Assembly (NCBI GenBank): GCA_963771885.1 | Contig: CAVYVF010000022.1 | Location: forward strand, 332,668 to 396,667 | DNA length: 64,000 bases | Direction: 5' to 3' | Origin: Candidatus Bathyarchaeota archaeon | GTDB taxonomy: Archaea > Thermoproteota > Bathyarchaeia > TCS64 | Shown: positions 31,356 through 43,860 of the stretch, piece by piece | How positions within the stretch are numbered: the first letter of the stretch is position 1 | Layout: each line of letters opens with the position of its first letter | Notes under the pieces: model-generated | The model's database searches: none | What the model saw: only the letters and a program-made list of their open reading frames with translations | Told to the model about the DNA's origin: nothing | Translations under genes and position numbers: made by a program

Positions 31356-32325
31356 TCATTTAAAACTTCGAGCCATCTTAAAGACATCGAGGAAACCCAT
31401 CCTCATGTCCATTCTCCTACGAGAATTCTCTAATAGGACACGGGCATCCAACAAGTTCAGTGGACGACCGTTAGCGAGTTTGTCAACTACCTTTCTCTCT
31501 CTATCAAGCCAGCTGAATTCCCTAAGGATTTCACCAGTGTAACCTTCGGGATCATCCCAATTATTTAGAAGAATTTGTACGCTTTTCATAGAGGTAACGA
31601 TGCCGTCGCCGACTAGTGGAGAGACACATCCTATTGCCTCTCCTACTCCCCAGATTTGAGGTGCGTCCCTCAACCACAAAGGGTATTGAGGCACCCGGCG
31701 CCGACAGGCGAACCACTCCTCTGCAACCGCAGACTGGCTCGTTAACCTTCCAGCCTGCCAGCGTTGTGCCATCGTAACTATTCGCAGGGTCATCGTTAAT
31801 ACATCCAAAACCGATGTGAACGTGGTCTCCGAGTGGAAAATGCCAGGCATACCCGACCCCGCCGAGTTTTATCTTGATCTCATCTGACTCATCCGATTTC
31901 TTGACCTTGAATTGGATGCACGACATCAATAGGTCATTCTGAATCGGGGGTAAGAAAGCTCTCGCCACTCCGGTTGCATCAATAATTCGGTCATAATCAG
32001 AGGGGTTAAGGGGGCCATGCTTTACCTTTGCCGATTGAGATAACGCCTTGACCCACCGTGGCTTGTCAAAGGTGATGAAGTCAGCCTTAACTTTGAAGTC
32101 GTCGAAAATCATGTGGTCATATCTACTGATGATGTAGTCCTCGGGGTCAAGACCAGCTTCCTTGACCAGCTCGCGGAAGCCTAGTGATGTACCCCAGGCA
32201 CATGAGTGAATACCGCAGGCAGTATCATTATGCCTCTCGTAGACGTCGGGGGAGAATCCCTCCTCTCTGAGGAGCCTGTAAAGATACGCGCCGGCTACGC
32301 CGAGGCCTGCGATGGCTATCCTCAG
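31356..32325 (-). CDS. FAD-dependent oxidoreductase, geranylgeranyl reductase-like; CTG start, frameshift near 31668
   Basis: Rossmann motif LRIAIAGLGVAG, CAWG, GYAWHFP, GEAIGCVSPLVGDGI; GGAGGT upstream of CTG 32325. Confidence 0.82.
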
Positions 32326-32604
32326 ATTCTCTACCTCCTAGATAGAGGAACCCTCATAGGCAGTATTATAATTATGGTAAAAGTAACCAAATATTTAGCT
32401 TTTACGCTCGAAGAGTTTTATAAATTGAGGAGAACAGACTTACGGACATAGTATTTAGACCATTTGTGAAAGAGAATAACCAATAATATCTGAAATTGTT
32501 CAAAGTGACCTTGAGTAGTAAAGAAACATTAATATGAACTAAAAATAAGAACAATTTGGACGCAATCTTATTAATCACGATTACCGATGCTACTATGCTA
32601 CATT

Positions 32605-33547
32605 ATGTATCAGGGGTATAGCATTGCAGTCGTTGTTCCAGCATACAATGAAGAGCTATTAATTGCGCAGACGTTAAAATCGATCCCTGATTATATCGAT
32701 AAAATTTACGCAGTAGATGATGGTTCAAACGACCGGACCCTAGATATAATCGAGGAAATTGCATCAAAAAATAAACAAATAATACCGATAAGTCATGAGG
32801 TGAATCGTCGGGGTAGGCGCATCCATTGTATCAGGCTACAAAAATAGCCTGAGAGACAACATAGACATAACTGTAGTAATGGCTGGCGATGCACAGATGG
32901 ACCCCATGCACATCCCACAGCTCATACAACCTATACTTGAAAACAAGGCAGATTATACTAAGGGAAACCGATTACTCAAAGTATCCCACATGAAGGGTAT
33001 GAGCCCCTTCAGGAGAATTGGGAACTCGATTCTAACTATGCTCACAAAGGTATCCTCTGGATACTACGACCTCATGGATCCCCAAAACGGATACACCGCT
33101 ATAACCAAGAGAGCGCTCGCAACAATCGAGCTCGAAGAGATCTACCCAAAATACGGTTACTGTAACGATCTTTTATGCAAACTGAACGTTTTCAACTTCT
33201 CAGTTGTGGATGTAGCTATACCTGCAAAATACGGAAGCGAAAAATCAAAGATAAAATACGGTCGCTATATAGTCAAGGTATCCTGGCTGCTCCTCAACAA
33301 CTTCCTCTATCGGCAGAAAATGAAGTACATTTTCCAAGATCTAAGCCCTATCCCATTCCTGTTCCTTCTTGGAGTAATATTAACTCCTTATGGGCTATTC
33401 ACTCTGGTAAATGGCCACTTTAACCCGGCTTTCGGCATGTCGTTGCCAATAATTATACTGGGGCTACAACTAACGCTAATAGCAACTTTCCTTGACATCA
33501 ATTATAGCAAATATAACCATAAACCGAAGAAACAGAAAAAAATCTGA
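32605..33547 (+). CDS. Glycosyltransferase family 2 (dolichol-phosphate sugar synthase-like), frameshift near 32810
   Basis: VVVPAYNEE, VDDGS, joined NRGVGASIVSGY..MAGDAQMDP, DPQNGYTAI; C-terminal TM segments. Confidence 0.88.
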
Positions 33548-36880: not shown

Positions 36881-38536
36881 ATGAGTTTGGGTAAGACTAG
36901 TTTGTATTTGGTATTTGGTGTGCTCGCACTATCTATTGTGCTGAATGGTTGCCTTTCAGAGGCTGTTTATGCCATAGATTCGTATACTTATGATTCAAGC
37001 ATAAAGGAGGAGAATTTTATTCTTCACTCTCTTGATAATCCAGTTTTTGTCGGTGGGCAGGAAACGAAGTATGTTATGGATACTAACTTCGTCTATGGCT
37101 TTAAGACCCTGGAGCAGGCTAGGCTAGGTTCATTATTCAAGCCAATAGGTCTACCGAAGAGCTCGCTGAACTTTTTCCTGTCCGCTCCGCTGACCAAGCC
37201 TCTGGAGCTTAGCGGGCAGTGGAAGGCGTCGATATGGGTCAACAGCACAGCGTACAAGCCAGTTGGATTCACTGTTGAGTTGATCGAGATATCTTCGTCT
37301 GGGAGCGTGATCTACGATACTGGCCAGCAGTCACCCATCGTGATTTCGAGTATTGGAGAGCACCTGGACGTTCAGGTGACTAATTACGTGCTTGTTTCAC
37401 CGATCAACCACGTCTTCCAGGAGGGGTCGGCAATAGAGGTGAGAGTCGAAGTGAACGCGGGTTCAAGCAGCGAGACCCGGATATGGTTTGACTCCCCGAT
37501 GTATCCGAGCAAAGTGATACTGCCCTGTATGGATTACGCTCGACCTGTATCGATGAAGACGTATAATTGGGAGGGTGTAAGGACCGACGCATTCGACGTT
37601 GACGCTACATCGGATAAGAGGATTGTTGAGATCTCTGCTAATGTAACCGACCCCTTTGGCGGTTATGATGTGGCTTCAGTCGAGTTGGAAATTTATTATA
37701 ATGGTACGCAGCGTGTGGCGGGACCCATGATTATGACCCTCGTAGACTCCGAGATAGGTCAACGCCTCTACTCGATAAACTGGACCTATCCATCAAATAT
37801 GTTGAGGGGTAACTACTCGGCAGTCATATCCGTAGTTGACAATAATGGGGCCTATTTTGAGAAGCAAAACGGGAGCCCCGACCCATTCATAGAAGAGGCG
37901 ACGCATCCCTTCAGCCTCGGCCCCATTGTATACTACAACCCTCTGATAACCATAAGGGACTCAGATGGGGATCCTGTGCCGGAGGCACAAGTATTTGTGA
38001 GTTATCCAAACGTCGCCCGAGACGAGTTGCCGCTTCTCACGGATATGAATGGAACGATTGTACTTACGAAGGTCGTACCCGCTAATTATACGCTTACAGT
38101 GATCTGGAAGAATAGCGTGGTAGCACACTCGGGAGTATACGTCAACTCTGACGGGCCTTTCAACGTATCAGCGAATGTGTACTCACTTACAGTAAATGTT
38201 GTTGATAACGTTGACAAACCCGTTACCGAAGCGTATGTTTTCGCCTACAGGGATAATCTTGGATACGGTTTTGGGACAACCGATGAAGAAGGCGTTGTGG
38301 TCTTCAAGGTTCCTAGTGGCATCTATGACCTTGAGACTCATTTCTCATCGACCTATCTGCTCAGCCATGTCTCATCGAACTCCACTAAGCCAGATCTTTC
38401 TATCGGGGAATCGACACAGATTACCTTAAAGTTAAACGATTATCCTCCGCCGCTATGGACAACTACAGGGTTTTTGGTCGTGCTAGCGGGAGCAGTTCTG
38501 CTAGTGATGATCCTGATGATCATCAGACGTAATTAA
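36881..38536 (+). CDS. Exported, C-terminally anchored surface protein with carboxypeptidase-regulatory-like beta domains
   Basis: Signal peptide; repeats of D..G.PV.EA.V..TD..G; C-terminal TM followed by RRN. Confidence 0.75.
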   Translation: MSLGKTSLYLVFGVLALSIVLNGCLSEAVYAIDSYTYDSSIKEENFILHSLDNPVFVGGQETKYVMDTNFVYGFKTLEQARLGSLFKPIGLPKSSLNFFLSAPLTKPLELSGQWKASIWVNSTAYKPVGFTVELIEISSSGSVIYDTGQQSPIVISSIGEHLDVQVTNYVLVSPINHVFQEGSAIEVRVEVNAGSSSETRIWFDSPMYPSKVILPCMDYARPVSMKTYNWEGVRTDAFDVDATSDKRIVEISANVTDPFGGYDVASVELEIYYNGTQRVAGPMIMTLVDSEIGQRLYSINWTYPSNMLRGNYSAVISVVDNNGAYFEKQNGSPDPFIEEATHPFSLGPIVYYNPLITIRDSDGDPVPEAQVFVSYPNVARDELPLLTDMNGTIVLTKVVPANYTLTVIWKNSVVAHSGVYVNSDGPFNVSANVYSLTVNVVDNVDKPVTEAYVFAYRDNLGYGFGTTDEEGVVVFKVPSGIYDLETHFSSTYLLSHVSSNSTKPDLSIGESTQITLKLNDYPPPLWTTTGFLVVLAGAVLLVMILMIIRRN

Positions 38537-39037: not shown

Positions 39038-39098
39038 AATGCTATTGCATTTCTCGGCTTTTAAGGGTCATGTGCTCGCTTTTTTGACGTGTGCGCGC

Positions 39099-39298: not shown

Positions 39299-41485
39299 GT
39301 GAATAAAATTTCTCAACTTTTACTGCTCTCCATTGGCGTCTTGCTTTTACTGGTCTCATCTATCTCAACAGCAGCCAAGTCTACAAACCTCTGCAATGAA
39401 TGCCATACTAGTTACAGCCAATATCTCGATATACTCGAAGACAATGCAAATGAAATAATTCCTCAGACAATAGGCGTAGGAGAAACTAAAACCGTTACCA
39501 TTCAGGTCAATAACCAATGTAACTCAAAAAGCTATACAACTCTGACAAATGTGCGCTTAAATCTCTCGTCAAAAAACGGTCTATTTCAGATAACCAACCC
39601 AACCTACATAGTTGGCACAATGAGTATAGGATCAAAAACAGCGACTTGGCAAATAACTGGGTTAACCAGTGGCTCGGATGAATTCGTAATAACTGCACAG
39701 GGAACAAACGCCCATAATCAGCTGACTTTTCGCGACATTTATGGCCCAGTGAAAACCCTCACAATAACAACCCCACAGCCAACACCAAAATACGCCGTAT
39801 TTGTAACGATCAGGGACACCACAACTTCGAATCCGCTTCAAGGGGTGATCGTAAGCCTCGGTGGGGCACAGAAAACAACAACTAGTAACGGAACGGTCTC
39901 ATTCAGCGTCGAAACCGGTAACTATTCTCTAGAAATATCTAAAGATGGCTATACAACATCTCAGGAGACAATTACACTAAGCGCTACAACAACCATTACA
40001 CGAACACTTGCCCCAACGTCTCTACCAAGCTACACCTTAAAAGTTAATGTAAGTGACTCAAACGCTCTCCCACTTCAATCAGCCAACGTCACAATAGCGG
40101 GAATTCAGAGACTCACCGATCAAAGCGGGCAAGCCTCATTCAACCTTCAATCTGGTATCTACACTGTAATAATCACTAAAAACGGGTATCTCCCCTATAA
40201 TGAAGCACTCACAGTATCAGCTAACGCGACTCTCTCAGCAACACTCACCACCATACTCCCTGAAACAGTTTTAATCAAGATCGTAGTAACCGACTCAATA
40301 ACTCAGACACCTATCAACGAAGTCGAGGTGAGACTCGGCGGAAAAATACAACAAACGAACACAATGGGGTTAACCACATATAGTCGACTTAGCGGAGAAT
40401 ATCTGCTTGAGCTCGTAAAAACTGGCTATATTTCATACGCAGAAAACGTCACCATTACTGCAAACGCAACAATTGAGAGAGGTCTGGATCCCGAGCAAAC
40501 GCCCGCAGAATCACTTCCACTGATGGTATACATCCACCCCCCAATCGCCATCACTGCTTATCTTTTGACATTCACTCTTACTGCCCTGTTATTTTCCAAC
40601 CTCGAGTCGAAGAGCATGCTATGGGTTGGATACGCGGCCTGGATCATGTCAATACTTGGCATGATCACTGGAATGATATGGGCTGAAAATGCATGGGGAT
40701 CATATTGGTCGTGGGAGCCGAGGGAATCCGCGATGCTAGCGATCACGGTGCTGATTTCCCTCACTATGATAACGCTAATAGAGAAAAGAAGGATCTTCGC
40801 CAAACCTCTTGCCTTGGCATCCTGCATCGCAATCGTTGTCACTCAGCAGATCTATTTCCTTGTAGCTGGAATTCTCGCCGTCTTGATTGTGGTCGTATTA
40901 AGATCTGATCTTCTCCTCGGGATGGAGAAGCCAAAACGATATGCTGCCCTCATGAGGCTCAATCGGGACATCTCTTGGGTTTTCATCGCTGAATCGGCGG
41001 CTACTCTAGGTGCAGGTTATGTTATGACCCGACTACAAATCGAGCCGTCAACCACCCTGATTGTTCACACATACCTGGGTTACGGCTTCGTTGCTTTGTT
41101 GCTCCTCCACATCATTCTAAGCTTTGCGTATCCCTATCCGTGGTTAGGGTATCTTCGAGCACTTCGGGGAGGTATAACTTCTAACAAGTTGTTCGCTGTC
41201 GCTCAAGAACTCTCGGCAGTTGCGCTGATAATAATTGCCTTAGCACAGTTTATCACAGGCTTGAGTTGGCTCAATCCTGTCCTAGCAAATCTAGTGCCAC
41301 TTAGACTTCACGTTGTTCTTGATAATGCCCTCATCTATCTACTCATTGTTCACGGATTGATCGGAGTAAGATCTGTTTTGCTAAGAAGAGGTTTGAGAGT
41401 GCCTGGAGCCAACTTGACTTGGGTTATCATTGCCTTAGTCATTCTCGGGGCTTTCCTTTACATTCAATACACTAACCTGTGGTAA
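39299..41485 (+). CDS. Fusion: signal peptide, CxxCH domain, Ig-like stalk, CcsA/CcmF-type WWD heme-lyase domain, His-paired cytochrome b-like membrane module
   Basis: CNECH at aa 32-36; three beta-sandwich repeats; IHPPIAITAY; GMIWAENAWGSYWSWEPRE; two TM repeats each with H-x13-H. Confidence 0.8.
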   Translation: MNKISQLLLLSIGVLLLLVSSISTAAKSTNLCNECHTSYSQYLDILEDNANEIIPQTIGVGETKTVTIQVNNQCNSKSYTTLTNVRLNLSSKNGLFQITNPTYIVGTMSIGSKTATWQITGLTSGSDEFVITAQGTNAHNQLTFRDIYGPVKTLTITTPQPTPKYAVFVTIRDTTTSNPLQGVIVSLGGAQKTTTSNGTVSFSVETGNYSLEISKDGYTTSQETITLSATTTITRTLAPTSLPSYTLKVNVSDSNALPLQSANVTIAGIQRLTDQSGQASFNLQSGIYTVIITKNGYLPYNEALTVSANATLSATLTTILPETVLIKIVVTDSITQTPINEVEVRLGGKIQQTNTMGLTTYSRLSGEYLLELVKTGYISYAENVTITANATIERGLDPEQTPAESLPLMVYIHPPIAITAYLLTFTLTALLFSNLESKSMLWVGYAAWIMSILGMITGMIWAENAWGSYWSWEPRESAMLAITVLISLTMITLIEKRRIFAKPLALASCIAIVVTQQIYFLVAGILAVLIVVVLRSDLLLGMEKPKRYAALMRLNRDISWVFIAESAATLGAGYVMTRLQIEPSTTLIVHTYLGYGFVALLLLHIILSFAYPYPWLGYLRALRGGITSNKLFAVAQELSAVALIIIALAQFITGLSWLNPVLANLVPLRLHVVLDNALIYLLIVHGLIGVRSVLLRRGLRVPGANLTWVIIALVILGAFLYIQYTNLW

Positions 41486-41522
41486 TATAATTGCGCATAT
41501 AGAAGTGCGCGCGAATAGATGT

Positions 41523-43860
41523 TTATTTTCGCTTTAATAGAATAAGCACGGCGACGCCGAGGATAACACCTGCCACGATTTCCTCATACATATATCCGGG
41601 TACCCCCCCCAGGCGAGCCTCCTGTTAATTTTGCTTGCAGGGTGATCGAGGTTGAGGCGACTGATCCAGCGATAACTGTGGCTGAGCTTGAGCTCGATTC
41701 GTAGCCATTATACGATGCTTGGAACGTGTAGCTGCCCGCTGCGATATTGTTGAATGTGAGTGACCCATCAGATCCTGAGACTCCGCTAAGGGCTGATTGC
41801 CCGTTTGGTACATTAGTCGATGATATGTTTGCTCCGGGAATTGATTTCCCCACCTTGTCGAGGACGGTGAGTTTAACCCCGCCGGTTGTCACCGATGGCT
41901 GGGAGATCGTAAAAGACATTGAGTCAGAGCCGTATGGCTGGGCTTTGAGGTGGAGGGTATAACTACCAACACTTAGCTTGGATGTATCCACCTTCGCCTC
42001 ATAGTAACCTCCGTTTAACCCAATATTTCCCTCGTCCACAACGGTTTGGTTGGCCGAGGTGATGTAATATGTGAAGCCAGGAGATGGATCGTTCAGTAGG
42101 GTACCGGCGAAGCTTTTTACGATATATTCCACTGTTAGGGTTTCGCCTCTGGCAACTAATTGCCTAGTTTCTTCTCTTGCGATTAGTCCAGGCCTCGATG
42201 GAGTCCTCAGTAAGTAGATTGGGTTCCATACCAGCGTAACATCTTGTTTTCCCGGGACGAAGATGAAAGGACCGGTGCCTACGAGTTTCGTCAAACCCTT
42301 AACAGTCGGGTTGGCTTCCTCCCAAGGCTTGAAGTTAAGCGGCTCTGAAATGTCACCCCAGATGCGCTCAGACATAAAGGTAAGCCAGTTGAGGGCGTAT
42401 ATGAGCCTGAAACCGGATTCATTTAGATAGATAATAATTGTATTATCGTCGGGTGTCTCAACTTTGGCTACCTTGCTGATGATTTCCTTATAATTTGGTA
42501 AATCATGAGTTCTGAGATAATCGATGCAGAAACTATAATCCCTGGAAGTGAATTGTGCGCCGTCCTGCCAGAAAATGCCTTGTCTCAGATTGAATTTGAC
42601 TTTCATGCCCTGAGAACCCGTTGGTGTTGTCCATGCCTCTGTTGACCAGCTGCTGGCGAGCATAGGCTCATCCTCCCCCGTCGAGGGGTTGACGTATATC
42701 ATGGGACTGTAGACAAGTTGTAGTATCCCCCACTCCCTGAACGAGTCGGCTGTACATGGGTTTAGTGTTGTCAGGTTCCCAATGATGCTCCCTTGGAGAA
42801 TACCCCCGTAATTCTGGTTGTCTATGCTGAGGTTGGTGTAGCTCCAGATGTTATCGACGCCCAGCCCCGGAATGTTGACTACCCCGGAGAGTCCTGAACT
42901 CCAAGCTGACTGGGTATACGGCGCGAGAACTGGAACACAGGGGAGTAACTGTGATACCCTCTCCTGCGCTGCTAGGGCAGCCTGTCTGCACTCGTCTTCC
43001 GTGGCGCCTGTCCACATCATCTGAAGACTGGTATCGAGGATCTGATCGTGGAGCCCTGAGTAGTTGCCTGTACCGTTTGTATCCTGTGAGGAGTGCAGCA
43101 TTGCGTAGAGGCCGAAGGGTATCCTCGTGAATGGGACGTACTGGACTAGCACATCGAAGTCCCTGCTGCTCGTTGTCTCCGCGAGGAGCTGACTCTGGGG
43201 TAGCGAAAGCTGCGTGCATTTGATGCCTATGGCGTTGGCATAGTATGCCGTCGCGTATCCAATATCCCAGAGGGTTCTGCTGCCTACTTGGGTTGGCGTC
43301 ATCAGCACGATCTCGAGTGTTTTACCTGTGTTCGGGTTTATTCTCCATCCAGTCTTCGTGTCGAGCTTATAGCCCGCATCCTCAAGCATCATTGCGGCGG
43401 CTTTCGAATCGAACTCAGGGACTATCGCCTCCTCGTTGATCCAGCTGGGCGTTGTCGTTGAATAACTGAGTGTGGGGGTGGCTCCTCCCCTCTCAAGGGT
43501 GTCGCAGATGTAGTCTCTGTTTATGAGCCTCGAGAACGCCTCCCTGAAGGCTTGGTCGTTGCAGGGGTTTCGCCGCGTGTTAAAGAATAGGTAGGCGACC
43601 GTTGTGCTTGTCGAGTTGACTATTTTGATGTTCGTTGATTGTAATTGTTCAGCCTGCGAGCCTGTGAGGAGTGGGATATAGTCGATTTCTCCGTTGGCAA
43701 ATATTCTAGCCTGATCGTTTTCGCTGAAGCGGGGGAGAATTCGCAGGTTAATCGAATCGAAATTGGGACCTGTAGGAACAGATGCTGTGGCTAATGGAAT
43801 TGGGGTTGAGAGTATAGCCAAGAAGAGAAGGGTGAGTAGTTTTTTCCACATTTTAATCAC
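41523..43860 (-). CDS. Family 5 ABC peptide-binding protein with C-terminal beta domains and PGF-CTERM-like anchor (frameshift in G8 run at 41603-41610)
   Basis: FREAFSRLINR, WQDGAQFTSRD, VGTGPF; with 7 G the C-terminus reads GGVPGYMYEEIVAGVILGVAVLILLKRK-stop. Confidence 0.82.

Follow-up and report, generated by a model that had tools for sequence, protein, structure and literature searches.

The genome of Candidatus Bathyarchaeota archaeon (assembly GCA_963771885.1, our G000) encodes, in a 64,000-nucleotide stretch of contig CAVYVF010000022.1 hereafter called the window, a 728-residue protein, P0001, that unites in one chain three parts found as separate genes elsewhere. The gene lies at positions 39299..41485 of the forward strand, as do all features described below. 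The parts are an exported immunoglobulin (Ig)-like domain with a CxxCH motif, carried on an Ig-like stalk, a WWD heme-handling core and a cytochrome b-like module. This triple fusion is a real gene architecture. Its motifs are conserved, its CxxCH domain and WWD core are established partners, and the core has lost P-His2, the second external His of the WWD family, at the fusion junction. In the reading that we favour, and to which we give an even chance, P0001 is a redox module encoded by one gene and facing outward, and its WWD core continues to handle heme for the CxxCH of the same chain.

The triple fusion is a genuine gene

The gene is delineated by its open frame and by its homologues. 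It begins with a hydrophobic, Sec-type signal peptide (residues 1-26, 39299..39376; a helix at residues 3-27 in the structural model) that is probably cleaved after STAA, following the small-x-small rule. An earlier reading of the sequence (the original prediction) had described a single uninterrupted 728-residue frame with a series of motifs, and each of them is present at its position: CNECH at residues 32-36, NAHN with H139, IHPP with H413, WAENAWGSYWSWEPRE at residues 461-476, and the pairs H590/H604 and H671/H685. In Pfam, P0001 matches CarboxypepD_reg/PEGA three times and Cytochrom_C_asm (PF01578) over residues 409-523 (E 3.7e-11, over the cut-off). Its top heme-handling match in NCBIfam is TIGR03144 (CcsA-type), below the cut-off of that model.

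After scoring 8000 candidates we retained six homologues of 728-729 residues, one of which is nearly the window's own, with 48-99% identity over the whole chain and 50-99% in the C-terminal half. C32, C35, H36, H139, H413, the WWD tryptophans and H590, H604, H671 and H685 are invariant across all six, which settles a reservation of the original prediction as to whether the CxxCH would be conserved. Among the 401 genomes of the class that were searched, the full-length fusion is found in G000, G153, G240 and G162. All four belong to the same genus, in which the gene is present in 4 of 18 genomes and missing from the other 14. Two metagenome contigs (L150, L151) also hold it in full length, and L003 (Bathyarchaeia, 49% identity) is the sole full-length match among 80 named GTDB loci.

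The original prediction had also envisaged that the fusion might be an assembly artefact. A chimera is ruled out by the full-length homologues, by the metagenome contigs and by a 1452-nucleotide contig from run X1 that covers positions 40088-41539 with 12 substitutions, no gap and no joint. This contig bridges both the stalk-core and the core-cytochrome b junctions; no single piece covers the whole gene. Six of the substitutions are synonymous and six non-synonymous, none of them in a motif, and they are too few to speak to selection.

Other searches with the gene or its product were less informative. The AlphaFold model of full-length P0001 was built on 7 alignment rows, and its membrane part is unusable (predicted local distance difference test, pLDDT, below 50). 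A fold search with this model returned Ig-stalk proteins only, and the ESM Atlas search gave only leads below 0.9. Bacterial-type promoter signals at the gene were at chance level, the consensus being unsuited to archaea. Our literature search, which had most subscription journals outside its reach, found no published description of the triple fusion or of the clade of small WWD proteins described below.

The fused core descends from a clade of minimal WWD proteins

The WWD core (40511..40858) comprises four helices and is identified by PF01578, by profile matches to CcmC (7f02), CcmF (6zmq), CcsA (25vk) and CcsBA (7s9y), and by its position in a tree. The helices expected of such a core span residues 413-433, 439-466, 474-494 and 498-515 in a model of low pLDDT, and the positive-inside pattern of the loops agrees with them. 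H413 (40535..40537), in IHPP, corresponds to P-His1: it aligns with the His of CcmC and CcmF and is a His in 13 of 16 triple fusions. The external WWD motif (40679..40726) retains the essential residues, with Glu for Asp and Arg for Lys. Of the six WWD residues that C. jejuni CcsBA cannot do without, P0001 has five unchanged, and the sixth, K988, is Arg; in addition, D986 is Glu. A full CcsA-type protein (L009) likewise has WEPK. P-His1, W461, A462, W466, W470, W472 and E476 are retained in 12 of 16 triple fusions, Asp always appearing as Glu.

The core is 45-53% identical to those of P0053 and P0007, and the motif is intact in both sub-branches of the tree. Because the motif residues persist at this degree of divergence, the fused core is evidently still under selection, yet it lacks one defining feature of the WWD family, namely P-His2 after the last core helix. 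This residue is missing from all 16 triple-fusion sequences (several of which are near-copies), and the loss falls exactly at the fusion junction (40856..40906). There, P0001 reads FLVAG-ILAV and continues into a linker helix, whereas the small WWD proteins read FLVAG-LHSY followed by a stop; in a profile alignment, the terminal GLHSY of the latter aligns to CcsA 25vk. We excluded that P-His2 is hidden elsewhere in P0001, all seven of its His residues having other assignments. The two caveats of the original prediction, Glu for the WWD Asp and no second external His, were therefore well founded. Of note, C509 (40823..40825) in the fourth core helix is a Cys in 118 of 120 small WWD proteins and in 15 of 16 triple fusions. 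It persists even where the WWD motif has decayed, and a thiol-redox role is possible.

In family f11, the core occurs as a free protein of ~132 residues, which we call a mini, or fused to the CxxCH domain via a Pro/Thr linker, with six adjacent and six fused cases. In nine f11 genomes (89-100% complete), a mini fused or adjacent to a CxxCH domain is the sole PF01578 match. ResB was found in none of 19 genomes and CcmE in none of five. In the best 120 of 274 mini matches, P-His1 and the WWD Asp are present in 120 and P-His2 in 119, and there is no conserved membrane His.

The partnership extends to metagenomes: of 46 loci, 29 have both parts (12 fusions and 17 adjacent pairs), 16 the mini only and one neither. 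By eye, nine of the mini-only loci follow a cut-off gene rich in Pro/Thr or Ig repeats and two follow the end of a His-bearing membrane domain; three lie at a contig edge and two have no visible partner. Two loci (L158, L192) appear, again by eye, to encode the same three parts as two genes, one that ends in the cytochrome b module and then a mini. The co-conservation check called for by the original prediction thus turned out positive: in many relatives the CxxCH domain goes together with a WWD core, and the two are conserved along with the cytochrome b.

In a quick tree of 91 cores, in which 29 of 58 CcsA-type rows were kept, minis and triple fusions stand apart from CcsA, CcmC and CcmF (Shimodaira-Hasegawa-like approximate likelihood ratio test, SH-aLRT, 99), and the triple fusions group together (98) within the minis; the tree carries long-branch warnings. 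The bacterial rows of this tree were found with patterns from the mini/triple-fusion family and are a biased sample. As judged from these relationships, the fused WWD core derives from the mini-WWD clade. An intact mini without an adjoining CxxCH gene, in G153 (L136:466-831), is placed as sister to the triple-fusion clade.

An exported Ig-like domain with a putative heme-c site

Residues 27-160 (39377..39778) are modelled as an Ig-like beta-sandwich (AlphaFold2, pLDDT 96, 82-row alignment). The three Ig-like stalk repeats of the original prediction are also recognised by Pfam (CarboxypepD_reg/PEGA, 39785..40492, beta-strands at pLDDT 76-89), to which we add that the CxxCH segment sits in a fourth Ig-like domain of its own. 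The stalk and the fifth transmembrane segment (TM5) are the least conserved mature region, at 40% identity to P0007.

The CxxCH (C32-N-E-C35-H36, 39392..39406) is invariant in 10 of 10 triple fusions; at the composition of P0001, 0.0002 such motifs per protein are expected by chance. The candidate distal heme ligand, H139 (39713..39715), is a His in 119 of 120 family rows. In the model, a short helix with the CxxCH precedes the sandwich and H139 is in the hairpin between the last strands, which from Ig topology would place it at the same end as the CxxCH. The closest folds are of the macroglobulin, transglutaminase and CARDB types (Z ~10, root-mean-square deviation 2.9-4.5, 105-114 residues aligned), with no hemoprotein among the best 50 matches of either search. 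Sequence searches of the PDB with the CxxCH-domain and cytochrome b profiles yielded no meaningful match.

We take residues 27-160 to define a new family, for which Pfam has no model. It has strong matches in 19 of the 401 class genomes (23 at E<=0.001) and 153 representatives, 116 of them at E<=1e-10. Across the 120 full-domain rows, which include seven P0001-like proteins, the Cys motif is CxxCH in 100, has a longer Cys spacing in five and is otherwise variant in 15. In 107 of 107 proteins the motif lies 5-19 residues past the leader, which puts it next to the membrane until the signal peptide is cleaved. The majority of the family are surface proteins on Ig stalks. Among 48 members picked from 150 listed, five end in a ferric-reductase-type membrane domain (two over the cut-off) and four have ferredoxin domains; because of these fusions we regard the CxxCH domain as repeatedly tied to redox modules. 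In P0020, P0051, P0064 and P0068, it sits on a long stalk with the ferredoxin domains at the end. P0103, P0125, P0126, P0133, P0042 and P0045 have lost one Cys of the CxxCH and retained both His, and P0045 has lost the second Cys, a WWD Trp and P-His2 together.

With an exported CxxCH and a conserved distal ligand, P0001 has the predicted hallmarks of a c-type cytochrome. Covalent heme on its CxxCH is very likely, and the invariant distal His suggests bis-His ligation.

A fused cytochrome b-like module

The C-terminal module (40934..41482) consists of two His-x13-His helices, with H590/H604 and H671/H685, and a last helix, as delineated by conservation, Pfam and charge pattern. The four His residues are invariant in 16 of 16 rows, among them stand-alone proteins and proteins in which the module is joined to a different domain, in line with the paired transmembrane His of b-heme type noted in the original prediction. 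Pfam matches are weak: Ni_hydr_CYTB in 11 and DUF4405 in five of the 16 members, with a best E value among the relatives of 2.8e-6 (Ni_hydr_CYTB). P0001 itself scores 14.3 bits against DUF4405 (cut-off 26.7, E 0.06), and all its cytochrome-b Pfam matches are below the cut-off. The loop charges fit an outside WWD loop, outer positions for H590 and H671 and inner positions for H604 and H685, with helix limits picked by hand in a low-confidence model. We predict with high confidence that this module is a di-heme cytochrome b.

The same module occurs in other settings. In L101, L102, L104 and L106-L109 it is fused to another domain behind a twin-arginine-like helix, which by eye we take to be a molybdenum oxidoreductase domain. 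In L095 and L100 it is fused to an unfamiliar His/Cys-bearing domain.

Proposed mechanism and alternatives

In our favoured reading, the three fused parts would work together as follows. The signal peptide would export the chain, and the WWD core would bind heme at the outer face of the membrane via H413 and the WWD tryptophans, presumably in a catalytic manner. It would present this heme to its own CxxCH or to that of a neighbouring copy. P-His2 has been proposed to swap for the CxxCH His (PMC11322641, PMC10746174), and in P0001 the substrate His might stand in for the lost residue altogether. The heme probably comes from outside, because the core has no membrane His and the host showed no sign of heme synthesis. 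Electrons would cross the membrane through the fused di-heme cytochrome b, which would also keep the incoming heme reduced for ligation. Afterwards, this cytochrome b would donate electrons to the bis-His heme c of the tethered Ig domain or withdraw them from it, presumably in exchange with an external partner. A rigid three-domain stalk would be too long for direct heme-to-heme transfer, and therefore a hinged shuttle would be needed.

The original prediction spoke of a self-maturing cytochrome or a one-gene conduit. The conduit has gained from the fusions of the CxxCH domain to further redox modules. Self-maturation has lost ground with the missing P-His2, the second WWD gene of all four carrier genomes and the decayed cores. 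In its full form, it would combine external heme, reduction by the protein's own cytochrome b and ligation to its own CxxCH with no Ccm/Ccs machinery, and the matured protein would then serve as a complete transmembrane electron conduit, a scenario that we hold only tentatively.

Several findings speak for a core that still serves its own CxxCH: the close partnership of mini and CxxCH domain; the confinement of WWD genes in the genus to the four genomes, of 18, that carry the triple fusion; the retained motif residues; the decay of the core in the three loci with an adjacent ccmF (L085, L086, L151); the frame breaks of the G000 ccmF, which has a substrate of its own beside it; the company of ccmF with cbb3-type cytochromes in f11; the proposed exchange of P-His2; the two-gene version in L158 and L192; and the place of the CxxCH close behind the leader. 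Other observations weigh against it. Mutagenesis is reported to show that P-His1 and P-His2 are both required in CcsBA, CcmF and CcmC (PMC11322641, PMC10746174, PMC10663686). For CcsBA, the same work describes a P-His2Gly variant whose synthase function was abolished, with no rescue by imidazole, and a D986C variant with 5-25% activity (PMC11322641). Among the minis, 119 of 120 have P-His2, and so do four of five double fusions, in which the substrate is also tethered; therefore, tethering alone does not relax the need for it. The WWD Asp, invariant in all 120 minis, is Glu in the triple fusion, and four of 16 triple fusions have lost the WWD motif. Each of the four carrier genomes has a second WWD gene. 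The frame breaks in the one of G000 have counterparts in two other genes among 44 query matches, so that assembly errors are possible. G000 has no match to HemB, HemC, ferrochelatase, AhbD, CcmB or CcmE, and the lack of matches for heme synthesis also counts here, as does the pLDDT below 50 of the membrane part of the full model.

Many of these points would fit a monoheme-c and cytochrome b conduit that is real but has an incomplete core. Such a core would only store heme or pass it along, or would be a spacer in decay, and heme attachment in trans would fall to CcmF or an intact mini. The absence of P-His2 in 16 of 16 sequences, the Asp-to-Glu change in 12 of 16 and full decay in four of 16 would all be explained. 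A second WWD gene, with both His residues, is available in four of four carrier genomes: an adjacent ccmF in G240 and G162, an orphan intact mini in G153 and a ccmF on contig C10 in G000. In a sister branch in which the core has decayed, ccmF adjoins all three loci for which DNA is available (L085, L086, L151). G249 combines a CxxCH domain with another cytochrome b, has no fused core and uses CcmC/CcmF, and G303 has a CxxCH domain with CcmF only. However, the tryptophans and P-His1 persist over 45-53% identity and two sub-branches, which would be needless for a mere spacer. The ccmF of G000 is broken as assembled and has a neighbouring substrate of its own, and there is no ccmF beside the intact-core genes in the window or L003. 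Maturation in trans is in our view a serious, if minority, possibility.

Heme supply suggests another role. G000 has a catalase-peroxidase-type gene but lacks matches to the heme-synthesis proteins named above and to FecCD, which suggests heme scavenging. In such an auxotroph, the Ig tip might bind heme reversibly through its two His, the cytochrome b would reduce it and the WWD core would pass it into the membrane, with no need for ligation to the CxxCH. The stronger conservation of the two His than of the second Cys, with 15 of 120 rows lacking a regular CxxCH and 119 keeping the distal His, would agree with this. Nevertheless, 100 of 120 rows have a canonical CxxCH beside a synthase-type partner, and covalent heme cannot move on. 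The core also lacks the membrane His that CcsBA has in its heme channel, the mini pair is present in six genomes that have HemB and HemC, and the gene is absent from 14 of 18 genomes of the genus. We find scavenging unlikely. Less likely still is that the protein is an adhesin or S-layer-like protein of the surface, on which the two Cys and two His bind a metal ion or form a disulfide, and that the link to heme is incidental. The ordinary Ig sandwich with no hemoprotein among its best fold matches, the variable Cys spacing and the prevalence of Ig-stalked surface proteins in the family are what such a site would predict. Its tight linkage to a WWD protein, the fusions to ferric-reductase-type (5/48) and ferredoxin (4/48) domains and the extracytoplasmic position of the motif, directly past the leader, all argue for heme.

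Relation to known systems and significance

The triple fusion resembles several known systems without belonging to them. With CcsBA/CcsA of System II (PF01578, TIGR03144; 7s9y, 25vk), it shares the four core helices and P-His1. The CcsA-style motif WGSYWSWDPKE is shared with the family of the minis, which end in GLHSY. Unlike CcsBA, these proteins have no CcsB/ResB (0/19) and no membrane His past the WWD motif, their core is ~115-130 residues long instead of 260 or more, and they form a separate clade. In P0001, moreover, the core has no P-His2 and shares its chain with a substrate motif and a cytochrome b. CcmC (7f02) is the best profile match of the core and, as reported, likewise has no membrane His (PMC10663686). 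In contrast with CcmC, the core falls outside the CcmC clade, and of the CcmAB/CcmE partners, G000 gave no match to CcmE or CcmB.

As for CcmF (6zmq), it has a WWD site and, in the membrane, a b heme that has been proposed to reduce the incoming heme (PMC10746174), the role that we suggest for the fused cytochrome b. However, CcmF has ~650 residues, 15 helices, a transmembrane His pair and CcmF_C, whereas the ~115-residue core lies outside the CcmF clade and the b-heme module of P0001 is a separate four-His domain that also occurs alone. P0001 would thus act much as a CcmF-style synthase does, with the client joined to it, yet by these comparisons it belongs to neither System I nor System II.

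The cytochrome b module is akin to DUF4405/MsrQ/PepSY-like and cytochrome b561-type proteins, with four membrane His on two His-x13-His helices; purified DUF4405 has been reported to bind heme b (PMC11334425). The module differs in having five helices and a c-type, not a flavinylated, external domain.

Substrate-dedicated heme lyases, known for the atypical motifs of NrfA and SirA, are full-size CcsBA/CcmF proteins for unusual motifs. They are comparable in that a synthase gene is kept beside one client cytochrome; here, the motif is mostly a plain CxxCH, the core is minimal and the chain is the same. Cytochrome f is a beta-sheet c-type cytochrome with a CxxCH near its mature N-terminus and a C-terminal anchor. 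It was not among the best 50 fold matches listed in either search, and its N-terminal amine ligand differs from the bis-His ligation suggested by the invariant distal His.

The Bathyarchaeia are, to our knowledge, a class not known for cytochromes c, and the triple fusion suggests outward-facing electron transfer in these abundant sediment archaea. Heme on an Ig sandwich would probably be a new fold for c-type cytochromes, represented in over 100 clusters. In this family, a cytochrome c synthase is cut down to its four core helices, and the members form a natural series: the intact mini with both His, the double fusion, the triple fusion without P-His2, and the decayed core with a neighbouring CcmF. 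This series bears on the role of P-His2, on the uncoupling of heme export from ligation and on a membrane b heme as reductant. Self-maturation, if true, would be a route of cytochrome c maturation outside Systems I and II. A 2015 survey reports that System II-V proteins were not found in archaea (PMC4429474).

Genomic context

The G000 assembly is 92% complete with 6.7% contamination; it has no CcmF_C match, and no CcmABCE partner was found for its ccmF. The region of contig C10 that holds its ccmF (G000:C10:42100-44560, L144) shows this gene with three frame breaks, facing a gene for a secreted CxxCH protein (CVGCH), which is itself broken; the pair may be pseudogenes or an assembly error. 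With this broken gene adjoining the ccmF, we rejected the idea that P0001 is its sole possible client.

Elsewhere, ccmF accompanies cbb3-type cytochromes in four of four f11 genomes, and the nine mini-only genomes have no cbb3-type cytochromes; ccmF in f11 therefore has other substrates, and synthases seem to travel with their own clients in these genomes. Seven f11 genomes have HemB and HemC. The ccmF cassettes L145-L149 (G303, G329, G346 and G351, the last with two copies) include a triheme cbb3-type cytochrome (PF13442). Their upstream gene resembles, by eye, the catalytic subunit of a cbb3 oxidase, and oxygen-reducing genes are unexpected for the class. CcmB-family matches, weak and mostly partial, are found in 15 of 19 genomes and are probably other ABC permeases.

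Among the neighbours listed for the loci compared, none was conserved beyond the WWD partner. The P0001 gene lies in a low-GC stretch (0.45, versus 0.54-0.58 for large contigs). Positions 21000-64000 of the window share this GC content of 0.45, have a tetranucleotide profile closer to the small contigs than to the core, and are rich in Ig-stalked surface proteins, such as those at 36881-38536 and, with SBP_bac_5, at 41584-43860. Reductase-like and glycosyltransferase-like genes at 31356-32112 and 32587-33547 seem by eye to be split across frames, and at 39091 three runs are short of 2 bases; the window assembly may contain indel errors. A truncated fragment of the CxxCH domain (L130, in G258) occupies the locus that in G240 and G162 holds the decayed fusions. 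Near the broken ccmF (G000:C10:34900-39250), we noted by eye what we presume to be multicopper-oxidase-like fragments and tatA/tatC-like and SOUL-like heme-binding genes.

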